Shown here in pieces: positions 18,701 through 64,000 of a DNA stretch of 64,000 bases; within the stretch, counting starts at the first letter, position 1; each line of letters starts with the position of its first letter. The position numbers and the translations under genes were made by a program. The notes beneath the pieces are model-generated. The model made no database searches. It was not told the origin of the DNA and saw nothing but the letters and a program-made list of their open reading frames with translations. This DNA is from Tubulanus polymorphus. Lineage: Eukaryota > Animalia > Nemertea. The stretch spans positions 18,510,150 through 18,574,149 of the forward strand of contig NC_134026.1 in the NCBI RefSeq assembly GCF_964204645.1, given 5' to 3'.

Positions 18701-21700
18701 AAGATTTTCCATGCATACTTTGTAAAATTCTAGCTCATGACAAGTTTTATGATTGTGGGGAGTTTCATCAAGCTCATTGATATCTGTACCGTATTTGTTC
18801 ACTAAGTGGGCATTGGCTTTTTATTTCAGTAACTGTTACCGTAACTGAAGTAAAAAGTCCAATATGGTGCATGGGAAGCGAATGTATGACATTTGTGGAT
18901 TATTTCATAACACTGTGAATTTCAGGTGGTCATGATAGGTGATGATATTGTAAGTGATGTAGGAGGATCGCAAAAGGCTGGATTATTCGGCGTTCAAGTG
19001 CGTACAGGAAAATACAGGTAAATTATTCATTTCTCTTTGATCCAGGTGGCTGCAAATTTTTTGCCCACTTGGGGCTTAGCCCCAGAGTGCTATTGCATTC
19101 ATTTTCTTTCATCCTTAAGCAGAATCTAATTTTCAACACACTTTGGTGTATTGTCTTGATATTTGGTTTATACATGTATCGTGATGTTTGATATCTATAT
19201 ACATGTATCCCCCTTGGGCCCATCATCACGAAAAACGATTTGGTTGATTACAAACAAGGTGCCCCCGTCTTGGTCTAAATTTTGAGGCTGCAGCAGAAAA
19301 AGGGGAAAGATATACTTAACCCAATGATAAAGCCCTGAGAGGTGTTCAGTGGGTTGGGGGCAAAAAACATGCAATACGATTTAGGAACAGGTAGGCCTAC
19401 ACCACAATTATGAAACCCAGTTACTGGGTTTCGACGAGTGTGAGATTTTATCAAGGATATTGATATTTTCAAGTAAGATTGAGAGGGTGAACTGGAATTC
19501 TCAAAGAAAGAATTTCAGCTTTGCGTGGAAGATGTTTGGAAGCCATCTGGACATTCTGACCGGAAGATGGATAACCAAAAAATTCGCTCTGTAAATGAGG
19601 AGTCATTTTGCTTGTGGAATTTAACCTGTTCTAGTTGGTTAATTCAGGTACAGGTGTATGAAAAGCAAAATGGCTTCAGATTTTGAAAGGGGGCTGCAGT
19701 GAGGGAGACAATCACATTTGTTTTGCTCTGACTCCAATTAAACTGCTGTTATTGTTCAATTTTTGCTCATCGATTATTTATGGTAGTGACATAGGCTTTG
19801 TATGTAAATTGTAAATATAGTTTATAGAAATTTTAGATTTTTATTTTAGACCTTGGACGTATAGCCCTATTTTAGACCTTAATTAGAGTATAATCTAGTT
19901 TATACTCCATGTTTAGACCTATGACACTAAATGAAATAGTCAAATTGAGCATATATAGATTTAATAGTTATAATAGTGCATCAAAAAGTGAATTTTGACG
20001 AGTACAATTTAATGATCAGATAAAATTTGTATGAACAGGGTCCCATCTAAGCACTTGTCCGATTGCCCGGGACGAGTATATTCTCATCAGGGCAAGTAGG
20101 TTATCATTATCACTTGTCCCCCGAGCTAGTGCAATTTCATGTCTCAAAGCTTTGTCCTACTCGATACAACGCATGTGAATGCCACCGATCGGAATGCCTG
20201 TGTAGGGCAACTAGCTTATGGAGGGGCAAGCGAAATTTCAGATATGCTTGCCCCGGGCAAGTGGCTTTTATTCCTTAGATCGGACCCTGATGAATAAACC
20301 ATTTTACAGTTGCTAGCCGCCATTTTGTTAGGGTACTTTTGTCCCGTATTGTTGGGTCATTTTTTTCTCTTTTTTAAAAACTATCCGTGATGTGTATTGT
20401 ATCATATTTCATCTGTCGATGGATGGATTTTGACAACTTCAGCAACATTCAAACCGCGTGAATCTCAAGTTTTCAGTTATGTAAAAATCATTTCTCAAAT
20501 TTACAACAATGCGACATGAGAGCGATATAAAAATCGGTGGTCAGTTTTTGCCGTGCGCATAGAAATCCAGGGTACTGAACTTTGAAGTTCGTTATTTTCA
20601 GAAATAATTTTCTAAAAAATCCAAACATTTCAAGCACTGTGCGCATAAACACCCCCTTTCAGGTGAACTTTGAAATTTTAAGATATCTTGCCTAGTTTTT
20701 TTCCTATGGCACTTTAACTGCAGCGCGTGTATTGTCATTCCGAGATTCGGCGCTGTTTTCTTTGCGTGTATTTCTGTATATGGGTGTTATTTCTTCATTT
20801 TCACTACTCTTGTCTCTACGGAAAATGGTTTTAATTGTTGGTACGAGTATCAGGTTTAAATATCACGTCGTTTATGCAATATAATAGATCGAAGACATTA
20901 GAGATGTTGGGGTTGAAGGGATTTTTCTGACCAGTTTTAGCAGCGAGACTGAGCGGCATTTTGATCACGCATTCGAAGTTGCGCGCGGGAGAATATATGG
21001 GCCTATATTGAGATGGAAGAAGAAAAGAAATATAACACTCAAAATCGAGTATGATGACCATTTAAATCAGTAGTCTATCAATAAATTTACATAAAAATCT
21101 GCTGAAATTAGATGGATGGAGAAGTGGTCAAAAAGCTGGACAAATGGAGTGGGGCAAATATTCAGCTACTTTCTATGAATACTTTCTATTAAGTACACTC
21201 AAGATTGATTAGATTGGGAAGAAAATATAGGAAAACGTTTTCTTGTTTTGGTGGTGAAATATCAAGTATCAAGTTCGAATGTCAGACGCAGGTGATAAAA
21301 AGTAAAAAGTGACATCTACCATCACAAAAACGCAAGAAGTGTGTGGATTGCATTTACAACAAAAGAGTGATATTTTGGGTTTTCTTGGGTGCATGTACGT
21401 AAGCCTCTGCCTGCTGTAAAAGCGGCTACCATTACAGCCATTACGAACTAGCGCCGGAGAACGGAATACAGTATTAATGCCGTAATATTTAAACCTGATA
21501 CTCGTACCAACAATTAAAACCATTTTCCGTAGAGACAAGTGTAGTGAAAATGAAGGAATAACACCCATATACTGAAATACATGCAAAGAAAACAGCGCCG
21601 AATCTCGGAATGACAATACACGCGCTGCAGTTAAAGAGCCATAGGAAAAAAACTAGGCAAGATATCTTAAAATTTCAAAGTTCACCTGAAAGTGTGCGTT

Positions 21701-22203
21701 TATGCGCACAGTGCTTGAAATGTTTGGATTTTTTAGAAAATTATTTCTGAAAATAACGAACTTCAAAGTTCAGTACCCTGAATTTCTATGTGCACGGCAA
21801 AAACTGACCACCGATTTTTATATCGCTCAAATGTCGCATTGTTGTAAATTTGAGAAATGATTTTTACATAACTGCGAAAAGTAGAGATTCACGCGGTTTG
21901 AATGTTGCTGAAGTTGTCAAAATCCATCCATCGACAGATGAAATATGATACAATACACATCACGGATAGTTTTTAAAAAAGAGAAAAAAATGACCCAACA
22001 ATACGGGACAAAAGTACCCTAACAAAATGGCGGCTAGCAACTGTAAAATGGTTTATTAAAACTTGACTAATTGAAACCTAATCTTGATATAAGACTGCTA
22101 TTTGTATTTCAGGCCGCAAGATGAAAATCATCCAACTGTGAAACCTCATTGTTACGTGGATAATTTAGCTGAAGCAGTCGATTTATACTTGAAATATAAA
22201 TAA
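12770..22203 (+). CDS. LHPP: Phospholysine phosphohistidine inorganic pyrophosphate phosphatase (HAD IIA), complete 7-exon CDS
   Basis: Phase-compatible GT-AG exons 12770-12903, 15609-15799, 16203-16356, 17575-17638, 18083-18175, 18926-19017, 22113-22203 (TAA). Motifs [73 protein letters not shown]. The DISGV motif favours LHPP over HDHD2. Confidence 0.96.
13187..13293 (+). mobile_element. Internally deleted 107-bp derivative of the Mutator-like element
   Basis: Same left about 60 bp and right about 48 bp as 10699-11546; flanks aattagggtc / ggttagggtc. Confidence 0.75.
13308..14154 (+). mobile_element. Mutator-like non-autonomous element, copy 2
   Basis: Near-identical direct copy of 10699-11546; 10-bp TSD agggtctaga. 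Confidence 0.8.
14291..14365 (+). repeat. tRNA-derived SINE-like head
   Basis: A-box-like tggtctagtg and B-box ggttcgaatc at tRNA-like spacing; no convincing full cloverleaf. Confidence 0.45.
16500..17186 (+). mobile_element. Helentron-associated (HINE-like) non-autonomous element
   Basis: Diverged internal repeats of about 140 bp (gccatcttgaatttct...caattcttgat at about 16645, 16790, 16922) and terminal hairpin aggcccgcgggcct followed by cttgtt. Left boundary uncertain. Confidence 0.5.
17788..18057. mobile_element. hAT-like MITE with 5-bp TSD
   Basis: TIR ccgggccgtcggaa / ttccgacggctctg; tactg on both flanks. Confidence 0.65.
20036..20289. mobile_element. hAT-like MITE with 5-bp TSD
   Basis: TIR cagggtcccatctaag / cttagatcggaccctg; atgaa on both flanks; internal ggcaag/cttgcc motifs. 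Confidence 0.7.
20293..22057. mobile_element. Foldback-type element with about 575-bp near-identical inverted arms
   Basis: 20293 to about 20866 is the reverse complement of about 21481-22057 with few differences; about 610-bp non-coding spacer; TSD ambiguous (possibly TA). Confidence 0.85.
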
Positions 22204-25454: not shown

Positions 25455-25745
25455 CCTTAATTATATCCAAATAAGGGCAATTTTTCTCGCAAATTGTCAC
25501 GAATATTCACGAATTTCAAAAGATACATGTAGAAATTTATCACATGGTTACACAGATAGAATTGTGTGAAAATGCTATATAAGAAATCTCTTCCAGTGAG
25601 ACTGGTAAGAATATGGCGATTGTATTTGGAAGTGTGAAATGCAAATGTAAGTGAAACTGTTACAAGTATTACTATTGTACATTTTGATTTATTAGTAGTT
25701 TACTGATCAGACGAAACCATTTTTGAACCTCTGAATAACTGAACT
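25455..25745 (+). repeat. Interspersed repeat, paralogous to about 27980-28341 (the target site of the hairpin-ended element)
   Basis: Shared blocks caaataagggcaattt, atattcacgaatt, atgtagaaattta, gaattgtgtgaaaatg, agtgagactggtaa, ctgatc(a/g)gacga. Confidence 0.7.
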
Positions 25746-27950: not shown

Positions 27951-28341
27951 TTGCCAGGAATTTGTTAGGGCAGTTATTAATTAATTTCAAATAAGGGCAA
28001 TTTCCACCAACATTTTCATATTGTGAGAAAACAAGAACATAAATACAAATTCGAAAACACGTTTGAAATCATTGCTTATTTGTCTGAATTTCTAAAGCGG
28101 ATTTTCAAACAGAAATATTCACGAATTCTCGTCCCAGTAAAAGATAAATGTAGAAATTTACTACATAGTTACAAACATTAGAATTGTGTGAAAATGTCAT
28201 ATAGAAAAATCCCTCTGTTCTAGTGAGACTGGTAAATGTATTGTAATGGTCGATGGACGTAAATATATTGCAAATGTGAGTTAAAATGTTACAAGCGTTA
28301 TTGTTGCACGTTTTGAGTTTGTAGTTTTCTGATCGGACGAT

Positions 28342-28684
28342 AGTAATAGGGGTAATGGGCTTTCAAATCAAAGGTCGAACGGTCGAGCTCATAAAAAATG
28401 AAAAATATGAAAATAATAACAATTTCTACTTGAATTAGTCGCGAAACTCATAAAAAATGAAAAATAATTCTCACACACTCGAATTTATTTTTCATTTTTG
28501 CTCGCTAGAAAAAAGTGCGAGTAAAGTGTGAGTGAAATAAATTCGAGTGTGTGAGAATTAGTTTTCATTTTTTATGAGTTTCACTCCTAATTCAAGTAGA
28601 AATTGTTATTATTTTCATATTTTTCATTTTTTAATGAACTCGACCATTCAACCTTTAACCTGAAAGCCCATTACCCCTATTACT
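28342..28684. repeat. 343-bp imperfect palindrome (terminal hairpin), left end
   Basis: agtaataggggtaatgggctttc ... gaaagcccattacccctattact; arms about 150 bp; centre ctcgc...gcgag. Confidence 0.95.
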
Positions 28685-28806
28685 CTTAAAATATTCATAT
28701 ACATGAATAAAATATATATGAATAACATATAAATCGGATAGGTTATTCAATATAAAAAGTGTGAGTGAAATAATTCATATTTAAAACATTGAATATTTAT
28801 ATTTGA

Positions 28807-29361
28807 ATGAGTTTTAATAAAAATTTTGTTATAAAAATGAAGAAAGAAGAAGAAGAACCCAACTTTAAAATCGAAATCAATGAAATCAATGAAACCAATA
28901 AATCATTTTCACAGTTTTACATTAAAAATTATGTTTCAGCAACAAATTTATTGTCCGCAAGGTATTATAAAATTGAAAATATTACTGTAATTAATCAAAT
29001 ATTATCAAATGAAACATATTTAATTACTGAACTAGTAGATACTTTTGATAATGGTGTTAAAAATCCTAAATTGTTCAATACAGTTTTAAATTTTAAAGGA
29101 ACTTTAGATGAAAACATAATTAATATTCTTAAAACTCCTTTCAATGAAAGAAATGATGATATAATACATTCAAAAGATTACAATGATTTGATTAACTTAA
29201 GAATTGAAAAAAGACAATTATATTATTTCAATTTTGATAATAAACAAATTATCTATAATGAAAATTCATCAAATATTGGAATTCAATGTGAATTAGATAA
29301 TGAAAAATCATTTAAAGATAGTGCAGTTCAATGTAATTTAGATGATGAATTTGACAGTTGA
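28807..29361 (+). CDS. Hypothetical 184-aa intronless protein of the hairpin-ended element
   Basis: Open 555-bp ATG-started frame in very AT-rich DNA; the 5' part is also open in the second TIR copy, where indels are multiples of 3; C-terminal GIQC and AVQC motifs. Confidence 0.6.
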   Translation: MSFNKNFVIKMKKEEEEPNFKIEINEINETNKSFSQFYIKNYVSATNLLSARYYKIENITVINQILSNETYLITELVDTFDNGVKNPKLFNTVLNFKGTLDENIINILKTPFNERNDDIIHSKDYNDLINLRIEKRQLYYFNFDNKQIIYNENSSNIGIQCELDNEKSFKDSAVQCNLDDEFDS

Positions 29362-31261
29362 AATGATAAACTGTTTGGCAGTTGAAATGATAAATTGTTT
29401 GATAGTTGAAATGTTAAATTGTTTGACAGTTGAAATGATAAATTTTTTGACAGTTGAAATGATAAATTGTTTGACAGTTGAAATGATAAATTGTTTAACA
29501 GTTGAAATGATAAATTGTTTGACAGTTGAAATGATAAATTGTTTGACAGTTGAAATGATAAGACAGCTGAAATGAAAAATTGTTTGACAGTTGAAATGAA
29601 AAATTGTTTGACAGTTGAAATGATAAATTGTTTGACAGTTGAAATGATAAATTGTTCGACTGTTGAAATGATAAGACAGTTGAAATGATAAATTGTTTGA
29701 CAGTTGAAATGATAAATTGTTTGACAGTTGAAATGTTAAATAGTTTGACAGTTGAAATGATAAATTGTTTGACAGTTGAAATGATAAATTGTTTGACAGT
29801 TGAAATGATAAGACAGCTGAAATGATAAATTGTTTGACAGTTGAAATGATAAATTGTTTGACAGTTGAAATGATAAATTGTTTGACAGTTGAAATGATAA
29901 GACAGCTGAAATGATAAATTGTTTGACAGTTGAAATGATAAATTGTTTGACAGTTGAAATGATAAATTGTTTGACAGTTGAAATGATAAATTGTTTGACA
30001 GTTGAAATGATAAATTGTTCGACAGTTGAAATGATAAATTGTTTGACAGTTGAAATGATAAATTGTTTGACAGTTGAAATGATAAGACAGCTGAAATGAT
30101 AAATTGTTTGACAGTTGAAATGATAAATTGTTTGACAGTTGAAATGATAAATTGTTTGACAGTTGAAATGATAAGACAGCTGAAATGATAAATTGTTTGA
30201 CAGTTGAAATGATAAATTGTTTGACAGTTGAAATGATAAATTGTTTGACAGTTGAAATGATACATTGTTCGACTGTTGAAATGATAAGACAGTTGAAATG
30301 ATAAATTGTTTTACAGTTGAAATGATAAATTGTTTGACAGTTGAAATGTTAAATTGTTTGACAGTTGAAATGATAAATTGTTTGACAGTTGAAATGATAA
30401 ATTGTTTGACAGTTGAAATGATAAATTGTTTGACAGTTGAAATGATAAGACAACTGAAATGATAAATTGTTTGACAGTTGAAATGATAAATTGTTTGACA
30501 GTTGAAATGATAAATTGTTCGACTGTTGAAATGATAAGACAGTTGAAATGATAAATTGTTTTACAGTTGAAATGATAAATTGTTTGACAGTTGAAATGTT
30601 AAATTGTTTGACAGTTGAAATGTTAAATTGTTTGACAGTTGAAATGATAAATTGTTTGACAGTTGAAATGATAAATTGTTTGACAGTTGAAATGATAAAT
30701 TGTTCGACTGTTGAAATGATAAGACAGTTGAAATGTTAAATTGTTTTACAGTTGAAATGATAAACTGTTTGGCAGTTGAAATGATAAATTGTTTGACAGT
30801 TGAAATTATAAATTGTTCGACTGTTGAAATGTTAAGACAGTTGAAATGATAAATTGTTTGTCAGTTGAAATGTTAAATTGTTTAACAGTTGAAATGTTAA
30901 ATTGTTTGACAGTTGAAATGATAATTTGTTTGACAGTTGAAATGATAAATTGTTTGACAGTTGAAATGATAAATTGTTTGACAGTTGAAATGATAAATTG
31001 TTTGACAGTTGAAATGATAAATTGTTTGACAGTTGAAATGATAAATTGTTTGACAGTTGAAATGATAAATTGTTTGACAGTTGAAATGATAAATTGTTCG
31101 ACAGTTGAAATGATAAATTGTTTGACAGTTGAAATGATAAATTGTTTGACAGTTGAAATGATAAATTGTTTGACAGTTGAAATGATAAATTGTTTGACAG
31201 TTGAAATGATAAATTGTTTGACAGTTGAAATGATAAATTGTTTGACAGTTGAAATGATAAA
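29350..31261 (+). repeat. 24-bp tandem array (gacagttgaaatgataaattgttt)n with interspersed 16-bp variants, about 80 units
   Basis: Directly visible. Confidence 0.98.
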
Positions 31262-31629
31262 AAAGTTGTCTGAGCATGGCTGCACCATTTCCAGAATCAA
31301 ATTGTTAAATCCGATGTAATAAAATGTTTTTATGGTGTTGATCTTAGTGCCGACATCATGATTTGATAAAAAATTAAAAGATATTTACGAGAAAGGAGAG
31401 TTTGGTAGTCGGTCGGCCACATGTATATTTTTGAAAAAAAGTTATTATACCCACAATTTTGAAAAAGGGTCGGTAGGAAATTATATTTTATTCTAAACAT
31501 GATTATTTGAAACGACGAAATATAGGGTCGGTCGGGCCCGAGAAGCAGGGTTTTCTTTTGGTTCTGGTCTTATGTGGTAAATTTTCAGTTTCACAACTTA
31601 ACTGTGGGGTCAATACAATAATAATCGTC

Positions 31630-32321
31630 AGTAATAGGGGTAATGGGCTTTCAAATCAAAGGTCGAACGGTCGAGCTCATAAAAAATGAAAAATATGAAA
31701 ATAATAACAATTTCTACTTGAATTAGTCGCGAAACTCATAGAAAATGATAAATAATTCTCACACACTCGAATTTTTTTTTCATTTTTTGCTCGCTAGAAA
31801 AAAGTGCGAGTAAAGTGTGAGTGAAATAAATTCGAGTGTGTGAGAATTATTTTTCATTTTTTATGAGTTTCACTCCTAATTCAAGTAGAAATTGTTATTA
31901 TTTTCATATTTTTCATTTTTTAATGAACTCGACCATTCAACCTTTAACCTGAAAGCCCATTACCCCTATTACTCTTAAAATATTCATATACATGAATAAA
32001 ATATATATGAATAACATATAAATCGGATAGATTATTCAATATAAAAGTGTGAGTGAAATAATTCATATCTAAAACATTGAATATTTATATTTGAATGAGT
32101 TTTAATAAAAATTGTGTTATAAAAATGAAGAAAGAAGAAGAACCCAACTTTAAAATCGAAATCAATGAAACCAATAAATCATTTTCACAGTTTTACATCA
32201 AAAATTATATTTCAGCAACAAATTTAGTGTCCGCAAGGTATTATAAAATTGAAAATATTACTGTTATTAATCAAATATTATCAAATGAAACATATTTAAT
32301 TACTGAACTAGTAGATACTTT
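31630..32321 (+). repeat. Second terminal repeat copy (hairpin 31630-31973 plus truncated ORF copy)
   Basis: Near-identical to 28342-29045; identity stops at gtagatacttt. Confidence 0.95.
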
Positions 32322-32367
32322 AGATCAAAAAGATTTAAATAAAAAAACAATAAGTTACTTTATCTAA
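32095..32367 (+). pseudogene. Truncated copy of the 184-aa ORF
   Basis: Matches 28807-29045 up to ELVDT, then runs into a fold-back junction. Confidence 0.75.
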
Positions 32368-32827
32368 TACTAGCTTATTTAACTTATTGTTTTTTTATTT
32401 AAATCTTTTTGATTTGTATTCGCGCTATTGGTTAACAAGAATTGACTAGAATTCAAATAGATTTAACAAAAAATTCAATAACTTTAACTGTTAGTATCAC
32501 TCTTGTATTATTTCATTGTTTCTCTTATTGAATAAGCCAACTAACTAATATCACTCTTCTATTATGCCAGTCAAATGTAAAGAATTTACAATATCATACT
32601 TGAATGAATTAAAACATAAATTACTTCTGTTACTTCATTTTCAGAAATAAAGCATAATATGTATTTAATACCATTAATACGTATTTAATACCATTAATAC
32701 GTATTTGATACGTATTTAATACATTGATACCTCAACCCTCCTTTTTTTAACGTAAATATAATTTACTCATTTTCATACATTTCAACTAATATATTTTATA
32801 TTTTCAGCTAATTTAACAGTCGATTTC

Positions 32828-33133
32828 TTATTTTGATTCATATAATTTTTCATCAAGTTCGTGAAGATACATGTGATTCCTTAATGATTTTTTATTTTTA
32901 TATCTTTTATTGCATATTTCACAGCATTTAATATTATTCAATCTATCTAAAATATATTTCATATTTTCTATTAATTCAGTGTATCTAATTTTACAGCAAT
33001 CATAGAATTCTAACAACTGTTTTATAGTATAAACTGAGAATGAAAATAAACCTGAAATCATAATAATTGATTTAGTATTCTGTTGATTTTTATATATTAG
33101 ATGTAATATTTCTAATACCTTATTTTCACTCAT
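32828..33133 (-). CDS. Small intronless protein with one C2H2 zinc finger
   Basis: CEICNKRYKNKKSLRNHMYLH fits C-x2-C-x3-Y-x5-L-x2-H-x3-H; first ATG gives MSENKV. Confidence 0.65.
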   Translation of the reverse strand: MSENKVLEILHLIYKNQQNTKSIIMISGLFSFSVYTIKQLLEFYDCCKIRYTELIENMKYILDRLNNIKCCEICNKRYKNKKSLRNHMYLHELDEKLYESK

Positions 33134-33180
33134 TTTTATAGACAAAATATATAGAATAAATTAAATTAAAAGATGTTGTT

Positions 33181-33399
33181 TTAATCCTCCAAATCATTTA
33201 AATCATTAACTTTTTTATTCTTTTTATTTCTGTGATTGTTTCCATTTAACTTCTTTAATTTCTTGCTTAATTTTATATTTTCATTAATCAAATCCTTACT
33301 GATATTTTCATAATAAAAGAAAAGCGCAGCCAATATTAATCCACCTGCTACTAAATAATGTTTCAAATCACTTTTCCCAGTTGGGATGAAACCATCCAT
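33181..33399 (-). CDS. 72-aa predicted single-pass membrane protein with basic tail
   Basis: Hydrophobic YLVAGGLILAALFFYY followed by a Lys/Asn-rich coiled-coil-like tail; ATG preceded by taa; tightly co-oriented with the zinc-finger ORF. Confidence 0.55.
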   Translation of the reverse strand: MDGFIPTGKSDLKHYLVAGGLILAALFFYYENISKDLINENIKLSKKLKKLNGNNHRNKKNKKVNDLNDLED

Positions 33400-33515
33400 T
33401 TATTTAAGAGAAAAATTAAACAGTTTGCTAGTTTGCTAGTTTTTAATTAAATATTTTATAATCATTTTAAAAATATTAAACTTTTAAATGATTAAATCAA
33501 ATAACAATTAAATTT

Positions 33516-35190
33516 ACAGCCAAACAATTTAACATTTCAACTGTCAAAGAATTTATCATTTCAACTGTCAAAGAATTTATCATTTCAACTGTCAAACAAT
33601 TCATCATTTCAACTGTCAAACAATTTATCACTTCAACTGTCAAACAATTTATCATTTCAACTGTCAAACAATTTATCATTTCAACTGTCAAACAATTTAT
33701 CATTTCAACTGTTAAACAATTTACCATTTCAACAGTCGAACAATTTATCATTTCAACTGTCGAACAATTTATCATTTCAACTGTCAAACAATTTATCATT
33801 TCAACTGTCAAACAATTTATCATTTTAACTGTCAAACAATTTATCATTTCAACCGTCAAACAATTTATCATTTCAACTGTCGAACAATTTATCATTTCAA
33901 CTGTCAAACAATTTATCATTTCAACTGTCAAACAATTTATCATTTCAACTGTCAAACAATTTATCATTTCAACTGTCAAAAAATTTAACATTTCAACTCT
34001 CTTATCATTTCAACAGTCGAACAATTTATCATTTCAACTGTCAAACAATTTATCATTTCAACTGTCAAACAATTTATCATTTCAGCTGTCTTATCATTTC
34101 AACTGCCAAACAATTTATCATTTCAACTGTCAAACAATTTATCATTTCAACTGTAAAACAATTTATCATTTCAACTGTCTTATCATTTCAACAGTCGAAC
34201 AATGTATCATTTCAGCTGTCTTATCATTTCAACTGTCAAACAATTTATCATTTCAACTGTCAAACAATTTATCATTTCAACTGTCAAACAATTTATCATT
34301 TCACCTTTCAAACAATTTATCATTTCAACTGTCAAACAATTTATCATTTCAGCTGTCTTATCATTTCAACTGCCAAACAATTCATCATTTCAACAGTCGA
34401 ACAATTCATCATTTCAACTGTCAAACAATTTATCATTTCAACTGTCAAACAATTTAACATTTCAACTGTTAAACAATTTATCATTTCAACTGTCAAACAA
34501 TTTATCATTTCAACTGTCAAACAATTTAACATTTCAACTGTCAAACAATTTATCATTTCAACTGTCTTATCATTTCAACAGTCGAACAATTTATCATTTC
34601 AGCTGTCTTATCATTTCAACTGTCAAACAATTTATCATTTCAACTGTCAAACAATTTATCATTTCAACTGTCAAACAATTTATCATTTCAGCTGTCTTAT
34701 CATTTCAACTGTCAAACAATTTATCATTTCAACTGTCAAACAATTTATCATTTCAACTGTCAAACAATTTATCATTTCAGCTGTCTTATCATTTCAACTG
34801 CCAAACAATTCATCATTTCAACAGTCGAACAATTTATCATTTCAACTGTCAAACAATTTATCATTTCAACTGTCAAACAATTTAACATTTCAACTGTTAA
34901 ACAATTTATCATTTCAACTGTCAAACAATTTATCATTTCAACTGTCAAACAATTTAACATTTCAACTGTCAAACAATTTATCATTTCAACTGTCTTATCA
35001 TTTCAACAGTCGAACAATTTATCATTTCAACTGTCAAACAATTTATCATTTCAACTGCCAAACAGTTTATCATTTCAACTGTCAAACAATTTAACATTTC
35101 AACTGTCTTATCATTTCAACAGTCGAACAATTTATCATTTCAACTGTCAAACAATTTATCAATTCAACTGTCAAACAATTTATCATTTCA
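33516..35190 (-). repeat. 24-bp tandem array, inverted continuation of 29350-31261, about 70 units
   Basis: (aaacaatttatcatttcaactgtc)n with the same 16-bp and cgactg/ggcag variants. Confidence 0.98.
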
Positions 35191-35410
35191 CGATGCTGAC
35201 GAGTAGTGACATGACAGAGAGACAAACAACGATTAACAACATAGCTATTTATATAACACAGATTCAAGACAGGTTGAGACATGGAAAATGATACAAAAAC
35301 AAAGGTGACGAGTAGTGACATGACAGAGAGACAAACAACGATTAACACACTCTGACGCAGACAAACGGACAATAAGTAATTAGATGGAGACATAAAACAA
35401 TAAAGAAATA

Positions 35411-36431
35411 CAAAGTAGGATATAAAGAGTTCAAATAATGTAAGAACCCATTCACATTAAAATCGGGGGAAACTAAACAAAGAATATCATCAACGTAACG
35501 TCGCCAAATTTTGGGTCTACTTTCGGTGTAAAGAGGAAGAATTTCACTTTCGACATGTTCCAAAAATAAACCAGCTAGAACAGGGGAAAGTGGGTTCCCC
35601 ATAGCCATACCAAAAATCTGTTCAAAAAAGTTAGAACCAAATTGAAAATATAAGTTTTTTGTACAAAGTTCAATTAAGTCCAAAAGACAATCAACCGGTA
35701 TATCAAAATGAAAATCTAAAGTAGGTAACTTTCTCCTAAGAAAGTCCAAAGTAGGTTCTAAAGGAACATTAGTGAATAAGCTAGCAACATCAAAAGATAT
35801 AAATTTATCATGCCCAGGAATAACATTTTTTAAACATTCCAATAAATCCTAAATGGGCATTCGAAAATGAGCCAAGAACCGGTGAAAGAGTTTTTGCCAA
35901 ATATTTAGATAGTCCATAAGATGGTGAATCACAATTGGAGATGATCGGTCGAAGCGGAATATCCTTCTTATGAATTTTTGGAAGTCCGTAGAGATAAGGG
36001 AGCGACGGTAACCGAGATTTAAATTTGTCCAGCGTTTTCGAAACATTGTCATCTTTAAAATTCGCAATAATGTCCGACAGTCCTTTATTGAATTTATTTT
36101 GCATCATTTTTAACGGGTTCGATTTGAGTTTTTTGTAAACATCCGGATTGTTAAGTAGATCTTGCATTTTAGATTCATACGATTCAATGTCCATGAGCAC
36201 AATTTTTCCTCCTTTGTCTGATTTAGAGATGCGGATGGTTTTAATTCTCCGAAGTTCACTGAGGGCAGATCTAAACCGGCGCGGGAAAAATTCATTGTAC
36301 TGAATCTTTAGTTGGTCTGAAATAGATTCTAGGTTCATGTATATGAAACCGTAATTGATGCTGTTGCAATTCTGGTATTCGAGTTGGCGTACAAAATCCA
36401 ATAGGTGTCGTTTCTGGTGCGGTAAAGCAAC
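35411..36431 (-). mobile_element. Penelope-like element, N-terminal RT half (decayed)
   Basis: KSDKGGKIVLMD, LYGLPKIHK, LRPIIS, SFDVASLFTNVP, GMAMGNPLSP, WRRYVDD. Confidence 0.92.
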
Positions 36432-37890
36432 TTTCCTCTTTGCAATCTTCTTACAAGATCTTGAGAAATATTTGCAAGACCACGGTTTTCTAGGATTAGA
36501 TAACTTACACTTACTATCTACCTCAGAGTTTGTGAGGGGGTTGGGTCATAAAATCAAAATGTTTCTACTCCTGTATGCTGATTACACCATTATATTAGCG
36601 GAGTCGAAAGAGCAACTACAATTAGGTCTCGATGCCATGTCTCAGTATTGTATTGATTTTAAACTATCAATAAATGTCAAGAAATGCAACATTATGGTAT
36701 TCAGTCGCGGAAGAAAGAGAAACCCAGAACCATTATTTAAATTATGTAATCAGACAGTTGATACAGTGCCCGAATATTGTTACTTGGGTGTACTTTTTTC
36801 TTCAAACGGTAGTTTTAAAGCCCATATTAAGTGGGCGGCAAACAAAGGAAGAAAAGCGATGTTTTCTTTGTTACGGCAAGGTAGAAAAGTTTGTCTGTCC
36901 CAACACTTATACACTTACGTATTTGGTCGTGCCAGTTATAACGTACGGTTGTGAAGTCTGGGGGTTTGAAGACTTAGATGAGATTGATGCAGCGCAAACC
37001 AAATTTTACAAATGTCTATTAAAGATGAAAAATTCTACTCCATCAGTTATGGTATTAGGTGAAGTCGGTGAGCTCCCGGTGTCAGTGTCTATCCACTGTC
37101 GTATGGTTTGTTATTGGGCTAAAATGAAAAACGAAATTACGAAGAACAAATGGAATGTTATTTTTTATATGATTTTAGCTGAACTTACTGAGAAAGGGTA
37201 TTTACAATCACCGTGGTTTTTAAAAGTTTAAGGTATTATTTCCCAATGCAATCTCCTTCACGCGTTCAATCAACTAAATGTGTCGGAAAGTTTTATTAAA
37301 AGAACTGTGCAAGGTGTCCTCAAAACTGCGTACATTAATTACTTTTGGAACGAACTGCATCATGAAAAAAGGTGTTGCTTTTATAAACTTGCCAAAAAAG
37401 AATTTTGTTTTGAAACGTATCTAAACTTGCCAGCCGATTTAGCTCTTCCTATTTGTTTTTTCAGAACATCAAATCTCTGTATGGATTCAATAAACTGTAG
37501 ACTTTCTGATTTACCCGATTGCCTTCGTTCTTGCTCTTTATGTCATAATATCATTATCTTCGACGAGTATCATCTATTTGCAGAATGTTCAATTTTAGAC
37601 GAGTATAGACAACTAGTTTGGAACGGCCCCATCTCTTTAAACTTATCTAAATTTGGAACCCTATTAAGTAGGTGTAACAACAAATCTAGAAGATTAGGAA
37701 TTTTTTGTAAAACGATTGTGAAACTTATCAACCCTCGTCGTCATTTTAGAACAAAATTTTGTCAAATTTTATTGATTATTCTATATTTTACGTTATGTTA
37801 TACAATTGTAAATACTTCTTGATGTCCCTCTGTATACCTCTCGTTGAGGTGATGAGTGTAAATAAATTTCAATTTCAATTTCAATTTCAA
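36432..37890 (+). mobile_element. 5'-truncated RTE-X-like LINE with (tttcaa)n tail
   Basis: LLLYADY, INVKKCNIMVF, YCYLGV, YGCEVWG, C-terminal CSLC...DEYHLFAEC; aataaa then tttcaa repeats at 37867-37890. Confidence 0.82.
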
Positions 37891-37993: not shown

Positions 37994-39207
37994 TTGTCGA
38001 ATAAACACTATAATCCGTGTATACTGTAGATAAATGAAGAAATCCCACACTTCGAATTTAAAATTATACGATCAAATTTATTATAATGAAACCACAACGT
38101 TTCGGCTGTTGACTAACAGCCATCATCAGGTGGAATGACCAGAAAAACAAGTAACAAAGCATATAAACTCACAGGATCTAAAATAGAAGCAGTGTGTCAA
38201 AACTAAAGATAAACAGACCAAGCAATAAAACATCAAGGGGTACCGTGGACCACAGAAATTCTAAACAGTTCAGAGTAAAAACAAATTATGTAACTAAGTG
38301 AAGTGGACTGAAGAGGGTGGCGATAACTGAGTGACACATAGTGACATTAACCCAAATCTAATAAAGAATTGATGTGTCTGGATAATAATTGGTTATGTGG
38401 AGAAAAACCAGTATTTAAATTAGTAGATAAATTGGATTTCGAAAGTTTACATGTAAGGGCTGATTCCACTATGTGTCTCTTATAAATATCTTAATTTACA
38501 AGGATAAATAAGTTTCGAATTCTGAAAGTCAAATTGGTGATTGGTTGTAAAGACATGATTTGCTATTCCACTCTCAGGCTTTTGGTTTCGGATATCTATT
38601 TTGTGTTCTTTAATACGCTGGCTAAGATTACGTCCCGTTTCGCCGATGTACATCATATTATAATCTTTACATGGTATCTTATAGACCCCGGACTCAATTA
38701 GCTCACTGTTGGGTTTATTTTTGGTTAAAACATCAGTGAGTTTGTTATTATACTGAAAGACTAATCTAGTGTCGATGGTGCTTAGTGTGGATTTAAAGCG
38801 TTCCAAAGTAGGTAAATACGGGATTATAATATTCTTTTGAGCTCTGCGTTTTGTGGTCAGGTCATTACGTCCAAAGTGAGAAATTCGGGCTTTGAAATAA
38901 GCTTTGTTCAAAATTTTGTCTGGATAGGCTAGTTTCTTGAGAGCAGTTCTTATATGTTTGATTTCTTTATCTAAAAACATTTGATCACAAATATACGTAG
39001 AGCTCGAAGAAATAATCCTTGGGCTATTCCAATTTTGATGTTCAAATGAGTAAATGAGAAAAAATGAAGATAAGCTTCAGCATTAGTCGGTTTCCTATAT
39101 ACAGAGAATTTCAAATTTGTTTTGAAATTATGAATGAGTACATCGAGAAACGGGATGCAATTATTTTCTTCCCACTCAAAAGTGAAGTTCAAAGTAGGAT
39201 ATAAAGA
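37994..39207 (-). mobile_element. Penelope-like element, RT thumb + GIY-YIG endonuclease + pseudo-LTR
   Basis: IPFLDV, VYRKPT, SGVYKIPC...YIGETGR; near-identical to 50499-51660. Confidence 0.92.
38092..38133 (-). ncRNA. Minimal type I hammerhead ribozyme in Penelope pLTR
   Basis: Minus strand CCAC-CUGAUGA-U-GGCUGUU-AGUC-AACAGCC-GAAAC-GUU-GUGG. Confidence 0.82.
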
Positions 39208-40523: not shown

Positions 40524-40817
40524 TTGTTGTTGCCACGTTAGGACGAAAAATAGCGCGATAAAACGAAAATTACCGCGTTAAAACGAGAAAAAGTCGCTTT
40601 AATCCGCGAAAAAACGAACTTTTTCGTTTTATTGCCACGTTAAAACGAAAAATGGCGCGATAAAACGAAAAATTAACGCAATGAAAATGATTTCGTTACA
40701 AAGTACAAATGCCGTTTTCTCAATTTTTCGTTTTAATGCGGCAATAAAACGAAAAAGTTCGTATTATCGCGCATTAAAACGACTTTTTCTCGTTTTATCG
40801 CGCAATAAAACGACTTA
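40524..40817. repeat. cg/taaaacg-motif-rich repeat related to 26417-26720
   Basis: Shares gaaaattacc..gttaaaacgagaaa; ends aaaacgactta. Confidence 0.5.
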
Positions 40818-49020: not shown

Positions 49021-50498
49021 GCTCTCAAGTCAGGTTGAAATAGACATTAGGCAGTAATCTATTTGTGGGATTTTTGGGACTATTTCATGCCTTCCTCAGC
49101 AAATTTATTTTTACTGAGACTGCTGTCTGAATCACAGCAGGGGCTCCAGGACGGAACGGGGGTTCCCCCGGCTCTTTTCTGACCAAGTGCCCTTTTGAAA
49201 ATCACGTGTGAAAAATTCCACCCGACATTGATCTATGACGAAAATCCCCAGTACTTCTTAAAGCAATTATATGCACAAAAATTGCATAAAAATGTGCCTG
49301 ATTTTTCAAAATGCCGGTACGTTCTCCACAAGTAGTAAAGCAGGCCTACCCTTGTAAAAGCCTATGAAGTGAATCCCCCCTTTTGATCAGCCTCGATCAG
49401 CCCTGGGGCTGGTATCAGAGTTTCAGTAGAGGCCTACCGGTACCTAATTGGTGGTATGCTTTTATAGGCCTAATGGATGGGCTACCATCCCTGTACAAAG
49501 ATTATAAAAGTGTAAAAATGATTATCTGTTAATCAAATGTCATACATTGTTGACAATGGATTAACAGATTATCATTTTTACAAGCCCTGTAGTCTGAATA
49601 AACCCTTACTTTTATTACCATTTTACACTGATTGCTAAAAAGTGTTGGTGACTGAATTTTGAATGTTTTTTTATTATTTCTAGCATGAAAATGTAGGCCC
49701 TTTTTATAAACCCTCATTCTTAAGTGTTGTGTTAAGCTTAGCGTACATCGATAAAATGACTGGAAACAACTAGTCTCTATTGAGCGAGTACCACGCGCAC
49801 ATCGAAAATCTAGTAAAAACCAGCAACTGCATGGCTCATGCCGGTCGCTTGTTGCGCGTGGCTCTAGAGGGGCTTGAGGGAACATTTGCGATTGCCGATG
49901 ATATTATCGTGGCCCAGGCCTTGAAGTTGGGAAAATCAGACCTGTAGCAAAAACATTTCAAAATGCTCTGGGTTGAGCATTTTACCAAAGACCATCAGCT
50001 TTTTAGAATCCCAATTTGCCTCCGTAATCTTAAAAGCCCATGGCAAAAATTGTGACACATATATATATATTACATGTATTTACAGTAAGGGATACATTAT
50101 GGATCAGTCACTCTGAATTGGTAAGTAAGTCATCACATCACATTAATCGTACATACATTCAGAGTCACTATTATATGACTGAGAGTCTAAATCTAAATCC
50201 TGTTTATAATTTCGCGCACCATATGGACGAATATTGGGCTGCCTCTCGCGACAGCCCGAAACCAACCGCTGTTTGACGACTGGTGTTGCATCAAATTCCT
50301 CAATGGGAACTCTTGGCCAAAATTCGTACTAACGATTCCATGATTTCAGGGGCAAGGCAATGCCGCCAGTCTTCCAGATTACACTTTGTTACGGAAAAGC
50401 GGTATAGTCGATATCATTCTTATCAACCGGAGAATATTTGTATATTTCTGTGAGATACTAGGATACATTATATACATTCGAATACAAGGCTAGGAATT

Positions 50499-52185
50499 TG
50501 TCGAATAAACACTATAATCCGTGTAAACTGTAGATAAATGAAGAAATCCCACACTTCGAATTTGAAATTATACGATCAAATTTATTATAATGAAACCACA
50601 ACGTTTCAGCTGTTGACTAACAGCCATCATCAGGTGGAATGACCAGAAAAACAAGTAACAAAGCATATAAACTCACAGGATCTAAAATAGAAGCAGTGTG
50701 TCAAAACTAAAGATAAACAGACCAAGCAATAAAACATCAAGGGGTACCGTGGAAACCACAGCAATTCTAAACAGTTCAGAGTAAAAACAAATTATGTAAC
50801 TAAGTGAAGTGGACTGAAGAGGGTGGCGATAACAGAGTGACACATAGTGACATTAACCCAAATCTAATAAAGAATTGATGTAGTAAATTGGATTTCGAAA
50901 GTTTACATATAAGGGCTGATTCCACTATGTGTCTCTTATGAATATCTTTACAAGGATAAATTAGTTTCGAATACTGAAAGTCAAATTGGTGATTGGTTGT
51001 AAAGACATGATTCGCTATTCCACTCTCAGGCTTTTGGTTGCGGATATCTATTTTGTGTTCTTTAATACCCTGACTGAGATTACGTCCCGTTTCGCCGATG
51101 TACATTATATTACAGTCTTTACATGGTATCTTATAGACCCCGGACTCAATTAGCTCACTGTTGGGTTTATTTTTGGTTAAAACATTAGTGAGTTTGTAAT
51201 TATACTGAAAGACTAATCTAGTGTCGATGGTGCTTAATGTGGATTTAAAGCGTTCCAAAGTAGGTAAATACGGGATTATAATATTCTTTTGAGCTCTGCG
51301 TTTTGTGGTCAGGTCATTACGTCCAAAGTGAGAAATTCGGGCTTTGAAATAAGCTTTGTTCAAAATTTTGTCTGGATAGGCTAGTTTCTTGAGAGCAGTT
51401 CTTATATGTTTGATTTCTTTATCTAAAAACATTTGATCACAAATACGTAGAGCTCGAAGAAATATTCCTTGGGCTATTCCAATTTTGATGTTCAAAGGAG
51501 TAAATGAGAAAAAATGAAGATAAGCTTCAGCGTTAGTCGGTTTTCTATATACAGAGAATTTCAAATTTGTTTTGAAATTATGAATGAGTACATCGAGAAA
51601 CGGGATGCAATTATTTTCTTCCCACTCAAAAGTGAAATTCAAAGTAGGATATAAAGAGTTCAAATAATGTAAGAATCCATTCACATTAAAATCGGGGGAA
51701 ACTAAAAGAATATCATCAACGTAACGTCGCCAAATTTTGGGTCTACTTTCAGTGTAAAGAGGAAGAATTTCACTTTCGACATGTTCCAAAAATAAACCAG
51801 CAAGAACAGGGGAAAGTGGGTTACCCATAGCCATACCAAAAATCTGTTCAAAAAAGTTAGAACCAAATTGAAAATATAAGTTTTTTGTACAAAGTTCAAT
51901 TAAGTCCAAAAGACAATCACCCGGTATATCAAAATGAAAATCTAAAGTAGGTAACTTTTTCCTAAGAAAGTCCAAAGTAGGTTCTAAAGGAACATAAGTG
52001 AATAAGCTAGCAACATCAAAAGATATATATTTATCATGCCCAGGAATAACATTTTTTAAACATTCCTATAAGTCCTGGTTATGGCGTAAATGGGCATTCG
52101 AAAATGAGCCAAGAACCGGTGAAAGAGTTTTAGCCAAATATTTAGATAGTCTATAGGATGGTGAATCACAATTGGAGATGATCAG
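50499..52185 (-). mobile_element. Penelope-like element (RT + GIY-YIG, 391-aa ORF 51975-50800), 5'-truncated, with pLTR
   Basis: GMAMGNPLSP, RYVDD, SGVYKIPCKDC..YIGETGR, NH..HQFD, RHIVESALI. Confidence 0.95.
50596..50637 (-). ncRNA. Minimal type I hammerhead ribozyme in Penelope pLTR (G-U at base of stem II)
   Basis: CCAC-CUGAUGA-U-GGCUGUU-AGUC-AACAGCU-GAAAC-GUU-GUGG. Confidence 0.72.
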
Positions 52186-61965: not shown

Positions 61966-62974
61966 CTTTTTTGTCAAAAGTACATAGACTTTTTTACATT
62001 ACCGCTGTTGCCGATACAATCTGTCTGATATCATTCAGCTCACTTCGCTCTACAAATACTCCGTGCGAATATTGAAGAATCAACGTTACAAAAGCACTGT
62101 CGGGCCGTTTTTCTAAGTCGTCTTTCCGAAATCTATCGCACGTTTCTTGTCACGTCGATTATCAATTCAAGCATAAATTAACAAATTTATTACCCAAAGA
62201 TTGCACATTCTGTCGCGGTTTTTAAAAACTAATTTTAACAATAGCCCATTTTCCTCATCAAATCATATTACCGATATACAGGAAATTTACTACTTTAGAT
62301 TTTGAAAGCACTGTCCAGCCGTAAACATCCACGAATCGACGAGTGTCACTACATCGTCGTTCCGGGGATCAGCTGCGAGTTTCTCCTCATCATGAGAATC
62401 AAATCGAGTACAAATTAATTTATTACTACCAGTGATTTGGCCACGGGCCTCAAGCAGTTAGTTTAGCAATACCTATTTTTCTTTATCAAATTAACCGTGT
62501 ATTTACTAAGATAAATCATAAGTGTACCAGGGAGTCGTAGGCCTAAACGAAACACGCCGAAGAGATATAGCAGAGAAAAGCTGTCATGTCGACGAGGTAT
62601 CAAAATAAAAGAATATATTACTTTATTCGGCCGCAGGCCTCAACCTCTATATCAATACCATCAATACTCTATATTTCTACAGTACATACCGATCATTGTC
62701 AAATCCACAAGGTATTTACTAAATACAAGTATATAACACACTCCTATCCGTATGCTGGACTCACACTTGACATTCGGAGTAAGCGTTCGCTGTGGGGGAA
62801 AGGAGATCGTTCGCTGTGTCGCTTGAAGTGTTTATCAAGTTTAACGCGACCTTAAGGCTTTAGTATGGTGGCTGATAAGATAAAAAAACACGAATATGCA
62901 AATGAGGGCGACATTACGACAAAACTAAAATAACGCGAGATATCAATGATTTTGATTTTGCATTCATTTGATTT

Positions 62975-64000
62975 TGACTTCATTATTTTGGTTTTGTCAC
63001 ACCGACAATTCAATATTTTGGTTTTATCGCCAGCGACAATTCATTATTTTGGTTTTATCGCTTGCGACAATTCATTAGTTTGGTTTTGTCGCCCGCGATT
63101 ATTCAATGTTTTTGTTTTGTTGCCCGCGACAATTCAATATTTTGGTTTTATCGCACATGACAATTCATTACATTGGTTTTATCGCCAGCGGCAATTCATT
63201 ATTTTGGTTTTGTCGCCCGCGACAATTCTTCTTTTTGGTTTTGTTGCCTGCTACAATTCATTATTTTGGTTTTATATTTTGTTTTTGTCGCCAGCCTCAA
63301 TATTTTTGTTTTATCGCCCGCGACAATTCATTATTTTGGTTTTATCGCCCGCGACAATTCAATATTTTGGTTTTATCGCCCGCGATTATTCATTATTTTG
63401 GTTTTGTCACCCGCAACAATTCATTAGTTTGGTTTGGTCGCCCGCGACAATTCAATATTTTGGTTTTATCGCCCACGACAATTCATTACTTTGGTTTTAT
63501 CTCCAGCAACAATTCATTATTTTTGTTTTGTCGCCCGTGACAATTCTTCTTTTTGGTTTTGTCGCCCGCGACAATTCATTTCTTTGGTTTTATATTTTGT
63601 TTTTGTCGCCCGTGACAAATTTTTCTTTTGGTTTTGTCGCCGGAGACAATTCAATATTTTGGTTTTATCGCCCGCGATAATTCATTATTTTGGTTTCATC
63701 GCCCGCGACAATTCATTATTTTGGTTTTGTCGCCCGAGACAATTCATTATTTTGGTTTTATCGCCGGCGACAATTCATTATTTTGGTTTTATCGCTTGCG
63801 ACAATTCATTAGTTTGGTTTTATCGCTCGCGACAATTCATTATTTTGGTTTTGTCGTCTACGACAATTCATTATTTTGGTTTTATCGCCCGCGACGATTC
63901 AATATTTTGGTTTTATCGCCCGCGATAATTCATTATTTTGGTTTTATCGCCCGCGACAATTCATTATTTGGTTTTGTCGCCCGAGACAATTCATTATTTT
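62975..64000 (+). repeat. 31-bp tandem satellite (gcccgcgacaattcattattttggtttt[a/g]tc)n running off the right edge
   Basis: Directly visible; diverged units at the left edge; inverted partial unit at about 62917-62934. Confidence 0.97.

Follow-up and report, generated by a model that had tools for sequence, protein, structure and literature searches.

The window, i.e., the whole stretch of 64,000 nucleotides analysed here, contains what is likely, judging by its sequence, a non-autonomous relic of a Polinton/virophage-type element. It begins with a 343-bp imperfect palindrome (28342-28684), whose outer stem carries mismatches that form G·T pairs on the minus strand only, i.e., on the strand whose 3' end is the element terminus. 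Integrated ends of the family hold one orientation of this palindrome. The likeliest reading, to which we give a probability of roughly 0.45, is that the 3'-terminal strand would fold back and serve as a primer, with helper enzymes acting in trans and with the differences between the arms marking the duplex tip.

The window is transposon-rich eukaryotic DNA (GC about 37%) with relics of BEL/Pao, piggyBac-type, Gypsy-type, and other reverse-transcriptase elements; BEL/Pao elements are mostly animal, which makes an animal host likely. The 2 end repeats of the element, 28342-29049 (709 bp, plus strand) and 31630-32325 (696 bp, plus strand), share 96.3% identity and lie in direct orientation in the assembly. 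They can be read as probable left and right terminal inverted repeats only because the right part of the element (31262-35190, about 3.9 kb) appears to be inverted, either by a true rearrangement or by an assembly misjoin. The first-pass annotation had placed the palindrome within terminal inverted repeats, and both end repeats do carry it; the copies, however, are direct as assembled and become inverted only given this inversion. The inversion is backed by a 12-bp microhomology, the array edges, and a 6-bp flank. Thus, 31250-31261 (plus strand), the first apparent breakpoint, is the reverse complement of 35179-35190. A 24/17-bp tandem array is split into a first part at 29350-31261 (plus strand, degenerate start and abrupt end) and a second part at 33521-35190 (minus strand, abrupt at 35190 and degenerate at 33521), and in each part the degenerate edge faces AT-rich element DNA while the abrupt edge carries the shared 12-bp word, in opposite orientations. 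The 6 bp of host flank next to the left end (28336-28341, plus strand) match 31624-31629 (minus strand) in reverse complement, which is likely a target-site duplication; the match breaks at the seventh base and has a chance probability of about 2e-4. Within the inverted segment, 31262-31623 is host-like DNA, with 34.5% GC versus 20-21% in the coding parts of the element. One observation does not fit: the normal continuation of the left-flank repeat (window position 25716) is absent behind the second 6-bp copy, while 814 reads of X5 (raw Illumina reads from another sample, covering about 12% of the run) carry it.

The simplest reading of the sequence is thus a single element of about 6.5 kb (2920 + 3561 bp) with AGT..ACT tips, terminal inverted repeats of about 700 bp, and a 6-bp duplication. 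Both ends begin with AGT (28342 and 31630), as in the 5'-AG..CT-3' termini of the Polinton type. An LTR-like direct-repeat reading of the 2 copies was rejected because it accounts for neither the reversed 6-bp flank nor the host-like island nor the broken array. A 3-kb inverted repeat with the arrays as arms was rejected as well, since both arrays turn their natural edge toward element DNA and have the 12-bp word in common at their abrupt edges. Exact matches of 17-19 bases to the tip, found at 6 metagenome loci and 2 loci on viral contigs, were attributed to chance, all 8 being without the palindrome.

Several further features of the window were recorded. The left end is inserted in a high-copy host repeat (28114-28340), an empty copy of which (74%) lies nearby at 25502-25714. 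Some 155 units of the 24-bp repeat, including variants of 17 and 16 bp, form higher-order patterns in the arrays, which make up more than half of the element. Broken copies of reverse-transcriptase elements at 35197-36545, 37994-39207, and 50498-52183 look Penelope-like by eye, with Pfam reporting only RVT_1, and the first of them begins right at the 35190 breakpoint. A 31-bp tandem array of more than 32 units (62951-64000) extends beyond the window edge.

The coding content of the element amounts to 3 small ORFs. The longest, of 184 codons (28807-29361, plus strand), starts inside end repeat 1, and a short 90-codon copy of its start is found at 32095-32367 (plus strand). On the minus strand, a 101-aa ORF (32828-33133) contains one C2H2-type zinc finger (Pfam zf-C2H2_4, E = 9e-5, under the curated cut-off), and a 72-aa ORF (33181-33399) has a hydrophobic stretch. 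Protein searches, some of which compared near-length candidates only, returned no homologues for the 184-codon, zinc-finger, or 72-aa ORFs. All Atlas matches of the 184-codon ORF are below 0.9, and its single-sequence structure model has a pLDDT of 31. Small Nucleocytoviricota clusters and archaeal zinc-finger clusters are among the Atlas look-alikes of the zinc-finger ORF at 0.91, which we treat as a lead only. A RepL match on the 90-aa ORF (E = 0.012) was discounted, being under the cut-off and missing for the longer copy. According to Pfam profiles, no integrase, polymerase, helicase, ATPase, protease, capsid, or Rep gene is present among the element ORFs, and integrase, polymerase, helicase, and Rep genes were not found elsewhere in the window either. 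Without integrase, polymerase, and capsid genes of its own, this copy must be a non-autonomous derivative. The stop codon of the 90-codon ORF lies in the loop of a 90-bp AT-rich hairpin with perfect 34-bp arms (32324-32413), which lies right at the inner boundary of end repeat 2 and is flanked by convergent ORFs; its fold has z = −13.8, with none of 200 shuffles as good, and it is likely a transcript end signal. Mimiviruses and their virophages use hairpins as transcript ends.

The palindrome itself starts at the first base of the element and recurs at the other end (31630-31973). Its existence as a 343-bp hairpin is confirmed by DNA folding (z = −30, equalled by 0 of 100 shuffles). Within it, the outer, or tip, arm of the conserved stem (28342-28442) pairs with the inner arm (28583-28684), which continues into the element, and between them lies an inner variable stem module (28443-28582) that is often partly deleted in other copies and seems to have arisen from the outer stem by duplication. 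The non-wobble internal loop tcgc/actc, reported by the first-pass annotation, is present as well (28439-28442 with 28583-28586). Some short motifs are common to both arms and to DNA outside the palindrome (28388, 28447, and 28566; 28526, 28549, and 28759; 28529 and 28762), and they may be protein-binding sites.

Regarding the folding energies of the 2 strands, the minus strand is indeed the more stable one for the whole hairpin, both as DNA (−144.9 vs −139.5 kcal/mol) and as RNA (−227.1 vs −209.2 kcal/mol). Its advantage as DNA, however, amounts to no more than 5.4-6.5 out of roughly 140 kcal/mol (about 4%), compared with 12-18 kcal/mol as RNA; a second DNA parameter set gave energies identical to the first and is not an independent confirmation. 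The difference is distributed unevenly: in the outer stem the minus strand is favoured by about 9.5 (DNA) and 27 (RNA) kcal/mol, whereas in the inner 140 bp the plus strand folds better, by 4.1 and 9.2 kcal/mol, respectively. On either strand the outermost 24 bp are free of mismatches, and priming from the 3'-OH would therefore not need the wobbles.

The mismatches at 28366, 28367, 28369, 28376, 28380, and 28388 are all A/G or C/T and give G·T on the minus strand, exactly as the first-pass annotation had described; a seventh at 28442 has the same direction, and all 7 recur in copy 31630-31973, in line with its statement that the second copy shares the differences. In each copy the outer stem consists of 92 matches, 7 minus-strand wobbles, no plus-strand wobbles, 2 other mismatches, and 1 bulge. 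The corresponding minus, plus, and other counts for the inner stem are 0, 3, and 2 in copy 1 and 0, 5, and 3 in copy 2. Thus, the claim that the mismatches are wobbles on the 3'-terminal strand only does not hold for the stem as a whole, the inner part being biased the other way.

Three control inverted repeats from the same window have 9 minus, 5 plus, and 22 other among 36 mismatches. They include an imperfect palindrome at 40574-40802 (229 bp, 78%, short AT-rich repeats; 5 minus, 2 plus, and 12 other) and a 1.76-kb element at 20293-22057, whose 575-bp inverted arms (97%) have mixed mismatches. The outer stem (7 of 9) differs from the controls (9 of 36) with two-sided p = 0.003, or p = 0.008 if the adjacent pair is counted as one (6 of 8). 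For the entire stem (7 of 14) the comparison with the control rate gives p = 0.02-0.08; the division into outer and inner stem was chosen post hoc, with family depth and the short form described below supplying a basis for it. Direction alone yields p = 0.016 for the 7 of 7 outer sites, but p = 0.34 once all 10 wobbles of the stem are counted (7 of 10).

The X5 reads provide a view of the family beyond these 2 copies, with 11,219 reads on 28200-29340 and 8,369 on 28330-28720, mostly 90-95% alike. At the element end 1600 reads break off at 28342 and a further 527 at 28341, and the flanks behind them are unrelated (agreement 0.34-0.36). Since these 2127 reads leave the element for unrelated sequence, 28342 is the true element end at many sites, and the family is high-copy with many insertion sites. 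The edge of the palindrome therefore coincides with the end of the element, so that a folded 3' end would sit on the internal template. A large subfamily shares only the outer 57 bp or so, with both arms diverging from 28398 and 28628 (1018 and 419 reads, respectively).

Arm variants were taken from the 40 of 123 that are listed (lowest share 19.6%); they are unphased, and reads may be assigned to the wrong arm. Among the listed variants, 14 fall in the right arm of the paired region, and 7 of these exactly complement a left-arm variant (28352/28674, 28357/28669, 28406/28619, 28409/28616, 28420/28605, 28473/28552, and 28477/28548), while of the other 7, 3 restore pairing with the left arm of the window and 4 do neither. 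The 7 complementary variants compare with 0.66 expected (p of about 1e-6, rising to 0.0015 under a lenient null). As for the original mismatches, restoration to a perfect pair at 28376, 28380, 28388, 28442, or their partners is absent among the 40 of 123 variants listed: 28380 has transversions only, and the other 3 have no listed variant at either arm. Positions 28366, 28367, and 28369 are partly restored in the family (21-44%). An additional minus-strand wobble appears at 28368 (2339 of 3395 reads) and a plus-strand wobble at 28518 in the inner stem (398 of 430 reads). The net direction over 21 transition pairs, with unlisted positions taken as having no variant, is 13 minus, 3 plus, and 5 near zero.

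These data bear on a neutral account, which we consider possible but on the doubtful side. It assumes a one-off fold-back accident, neutral arm-to-arm copying, and a bias that is due to chance or to one-strand C-to-T decay, e.g., on the non-template strand of outward transcripts, with no role in priming. All 7 differences are indeed those expected from C-to-T (or A-to-G) change on the minus strand, and direction-only significance is modest (p = 0.016-0.06 for 5-7 independent events, besides the value for the whole stem given above). The 7 sites are moreover shared by descent, so the family adds no independent support, and without them the transition pairs split into 6 minus, 3 plus, and 5 near zero (p = 0.51); the free loss of the inner stem from other copies agrees with this account as well. 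Accidental annealing is also the alternative offered by the authors of the Halocafeteria study discussed below (10.64898/2026.07.28.741278). However, CpG-context positions are not enriched among the mismatches (3 of 8 vs 4 of 26 elsewhere, Fisher p = 0.32), for which reason CpG decay was rejected as the cause of the bias. Raw change types, unpolarised and with restorations included, show no strand bias outside the palindrome (67 vs 56, p = 0.37, obtained by subtracting the counts for 28330-28720 from those for 28200-29340), contrary to one-strand decay; their balance inside it (30 vs 32) speaks against the fold-back reading. If arm copying were common enough to produce the 7 two-sided changes, it ought to have removed the mismatches too, and non-pairing mismatches are nearly missing from the outer stem, unlike in the controls.

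A shorter form of the hairpin is found in the family, in which 28443 is joined to 28582 with 2 letters in between (240 X5 reads; also in the X1, X2, and X3 contigs), and the tcgc/actc loop is its terminal loop. The X5 depth is 275-470 at the palindrome centre versus 3800 on the outer arm. Together, the joint and the low central depth mark the outer stem as the constant part. Past the inner arm, X5 depth changes from 2381 at 28680-28693 to 1933 at 28694-28707.

It is rather improbable, though worth weighing, that the palindrome functions as RNA, with outward (minus-sense) transcripts folding via G·U into a long hairpin that yields small RNAs or a transcript end. The strand difference is about 3 times larger with RNA parameters, most visibly in the outer stem, and the 28368 variant permits 4 consecutive G·U pairs at 28366-28369 (unphased). 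Two internal ORFs point toward end repeat 2. Endogenous hpRNA loci are long inverted repeats whose mismatches are compatible with G·U on one strand; such a pattern is present in the outer stem here and reversed in the inner stem, which favours the opposite strand. However, nothing requires an RNA hairpin to stop precisely at the first base of the element. In addition, the ORF adjoining the palindrome reads inward on the plus strand, and a separate 90-bp hairpin lies between the outward ORFs and the palindrome.

In X2, a set of contigs from another sample, the depth ratio of the element ORF (28863-29330) to the flank repeat (28278-28316) is 4.8, versus 0.16-0.43 in X1, X3, and X5. This excess of 10-30 times would fit either expression or amplification, contig depth being a poor measure; it would suit the RNA function if X2 is RNA.

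Simple hairpin transfer would place inner-arm letters at the tip in about 50% of ends. Against this expectation, flop ends make up less than about 13% according to loose ends (none behind 28684 among the 6 of 205 listed, the lowest with 320 reads, vs 2127 tips) and less than about 20% according to diagnostic variants (none at 28369, 28376, 28380, 28388, 28638, 28646, 28650, or 28660 among the 40 listed); both bounds assume that the listings are ranked, by reads and by share, respectively. No opposite-strand joints appear among the 15 of 73 listed for 28330-28720, and one, with 2 reads, is found on 28200-29340. With integrated copies in one orientation, simple AAV-like resolution is excluded for them, and the rarity of flop isomers argues against simple parvovirus hairpin transfer. 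The copy alignment suggested by the first-pass annotation, made here with unphased reads, shows compensatory changes but flop isomers only as a rarity, and parvovirus-type rolling-hairpin replication is disfavoured in the simple form, the window also having no Rep nickase. A fixed orientation is compatible with a mechanism like that of the MVM left end, where a mismatch leaves only one duplex arm active, or with an integrase that would accept flip ends only.

A fixed orientation would also be expected from protein priming. Here the element would replicate by protein priming and strand displacement, the displaced plus strand would fold, its G·T pairs would be repaired while A·C pairs survive, and the palindrome would be a protein-binding end signal. 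We regard this as quite unlikely. In its favour, the short motifs in both arms recur at 28759-28773. Three of the 7 G·T pairs are in CpG context, and MBD4/TDG-type enzymes would strip such pairs from a long-lived minus-strand DNA hairpin in the nucleus. On the other hand, deamination of a displaced plus strand would yield the opposite bias, mismatch repair corrects A·C as well, and plus-strand G·T pairs persist near the loop. The AGT..ACT ends, the likely 6-bp duplication, and the 700-bp repeats match Mavericks with a protein-primed polymerase, pPolB (PMC8097293). The Halocafeteria palindromes, in contrast, are preferentially found in elements with non-pPolB replication genes (10.64898/2026.07.28.741278).

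Fold-back priming by the 3'-terminal strand would combine these observations as follows. In a free phase of the element, the 343-bp tip likely folds back as single-stranded DNA, and DNA synthesis across the internal sequence would start from the folded 3'-terminal strand, with enzymes supplied in trans by an unseen autonomous partner. The arm differences would be kept because they make the duplex tip distinguishable from its inner copy, as the mismatch of the MVM left hairpin does, and G·T would let the 3' strand still pair despite them. Such marking would lead to a scarcity of flop ends and of solo palindromes. The coincidence of the palindrome edge with the element end points to a DNA-end mechanism, and the joint variation of the arms suggests that either fold-back or copying from arm to arm takes place in the life cycle. 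Thus, the proposal that the 3'-terminal strand is shaped to fold back gains from the terminus, the covariation, and an outer bias exceeding that of the controls, but is weakened by the opposite inner bias and by a 24-bp tip that is neutral with respect to strand. Against the mechanism stand also the almost equal folding of both strands as DNA and the absence of a replication gene from the window, and the two-sided changes can be explained by neutral arm-to-arm copying.

A wider interpretation, which we hold to be unlikely, is an animal family of virus-derived integrating elements that would use hairpin self-priming instead of protein priming and integrate by flip ends only. Its tip palindrome would be doubly tuned: the arms would differ in the duplex so that only the outer arm is an integration end, and only G·T-compatible changes would be allowed, which would keep the 3' strand able to fold. 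If so, the X2 excess would reflect ongoing amplification. If the bias is merely mutational, the tip is still unusual, but the element is an ordinary non-autonomous one. At issue is the way in which replication begins in Polinton-like viruses and virophages that have no protein-primed polymerase, for which hairpin priming has so far been proposed from palindromes alone. Because an imperfect palindrome marks its arms, orientation and strand can be read directly from sequencing data; the family thereby makes the hairpin-priming proposal testable and already narrows it to integrated ends of one orientation.

Among known systems, the closest likeness is with endogenous virophages (subtypes 1, 2, 5, and 6) and the subtype 4 PLV of Halocafeteria seosinensis, which have terminal palindromes for which the authors, drawing on the parallel with parvoviruses and poxviruses, put forward hairpin priming as a hypothesis (10.64898/2026.07.28.741278). 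There, and probably here too, the palindrome lies inside a terminal inverted repeat of an integrating element and adjoins a target-site duplication. The Halocafeteria palindrome is, however, much shorter (52 nt in subtype 5 vs 343 bp), the host is a protist, against a likely animal here, and the elements are complete with capsid and integrase genes, whereas the element described here is a relic with neither. The account of these palindromes in the preprint text mentions neither mismatches biased to one strand nor covariation of the arms nor counts of flip and flop. Vertebrate Maverick/Polinton elements share the AGT..ACT termini, the 6-bp duplication (likely here), and a repeat length within their range of 46-1447 bp, but the second tip triplet here differs from their (AGT)2 motif and none of their 8 core genes is present (PMC8097293); the words "palindrom" and "hairpin" do not occur in the main text of that paper.

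As for parvoviruses, the likeness is an imperfect terminal palindrome that would set the 3'-OH on the internal template, here by the minus-strand fold. In MVM the left-end mismatch leaves only one duplex arm as an active origin, and for the LuIII left end only flip is reported (PMC1185569). Unlike in parvoviruses, no NS1/Rep gene or nick site was identified here, the ends are of integrase type with a likely target duplication, and both ends are alike, both flip only, and formed by a simple unbranched stem. Vaccinia telomeres are likewise AT-rich, incompletely paired terminal hairpins, with mismatches that function in packaging and I1 binding (PMC8956199); they are, however, covalently closed, present as both isomers, and not integrated, while the element here has one dominant orientation and outer mismatches that can pair on one strand. 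In a literature search covering mostly open-access papers, neither a G·T bias toward one strand nor counts of orientation turned up for Polinton-type tips. The combination of integrase-type ends with parvovirus-like priming is already in print as a hypothesis; what is new here is the length of the palindrome, the one-strand bias, the fixed orientation, and the likely animal host.
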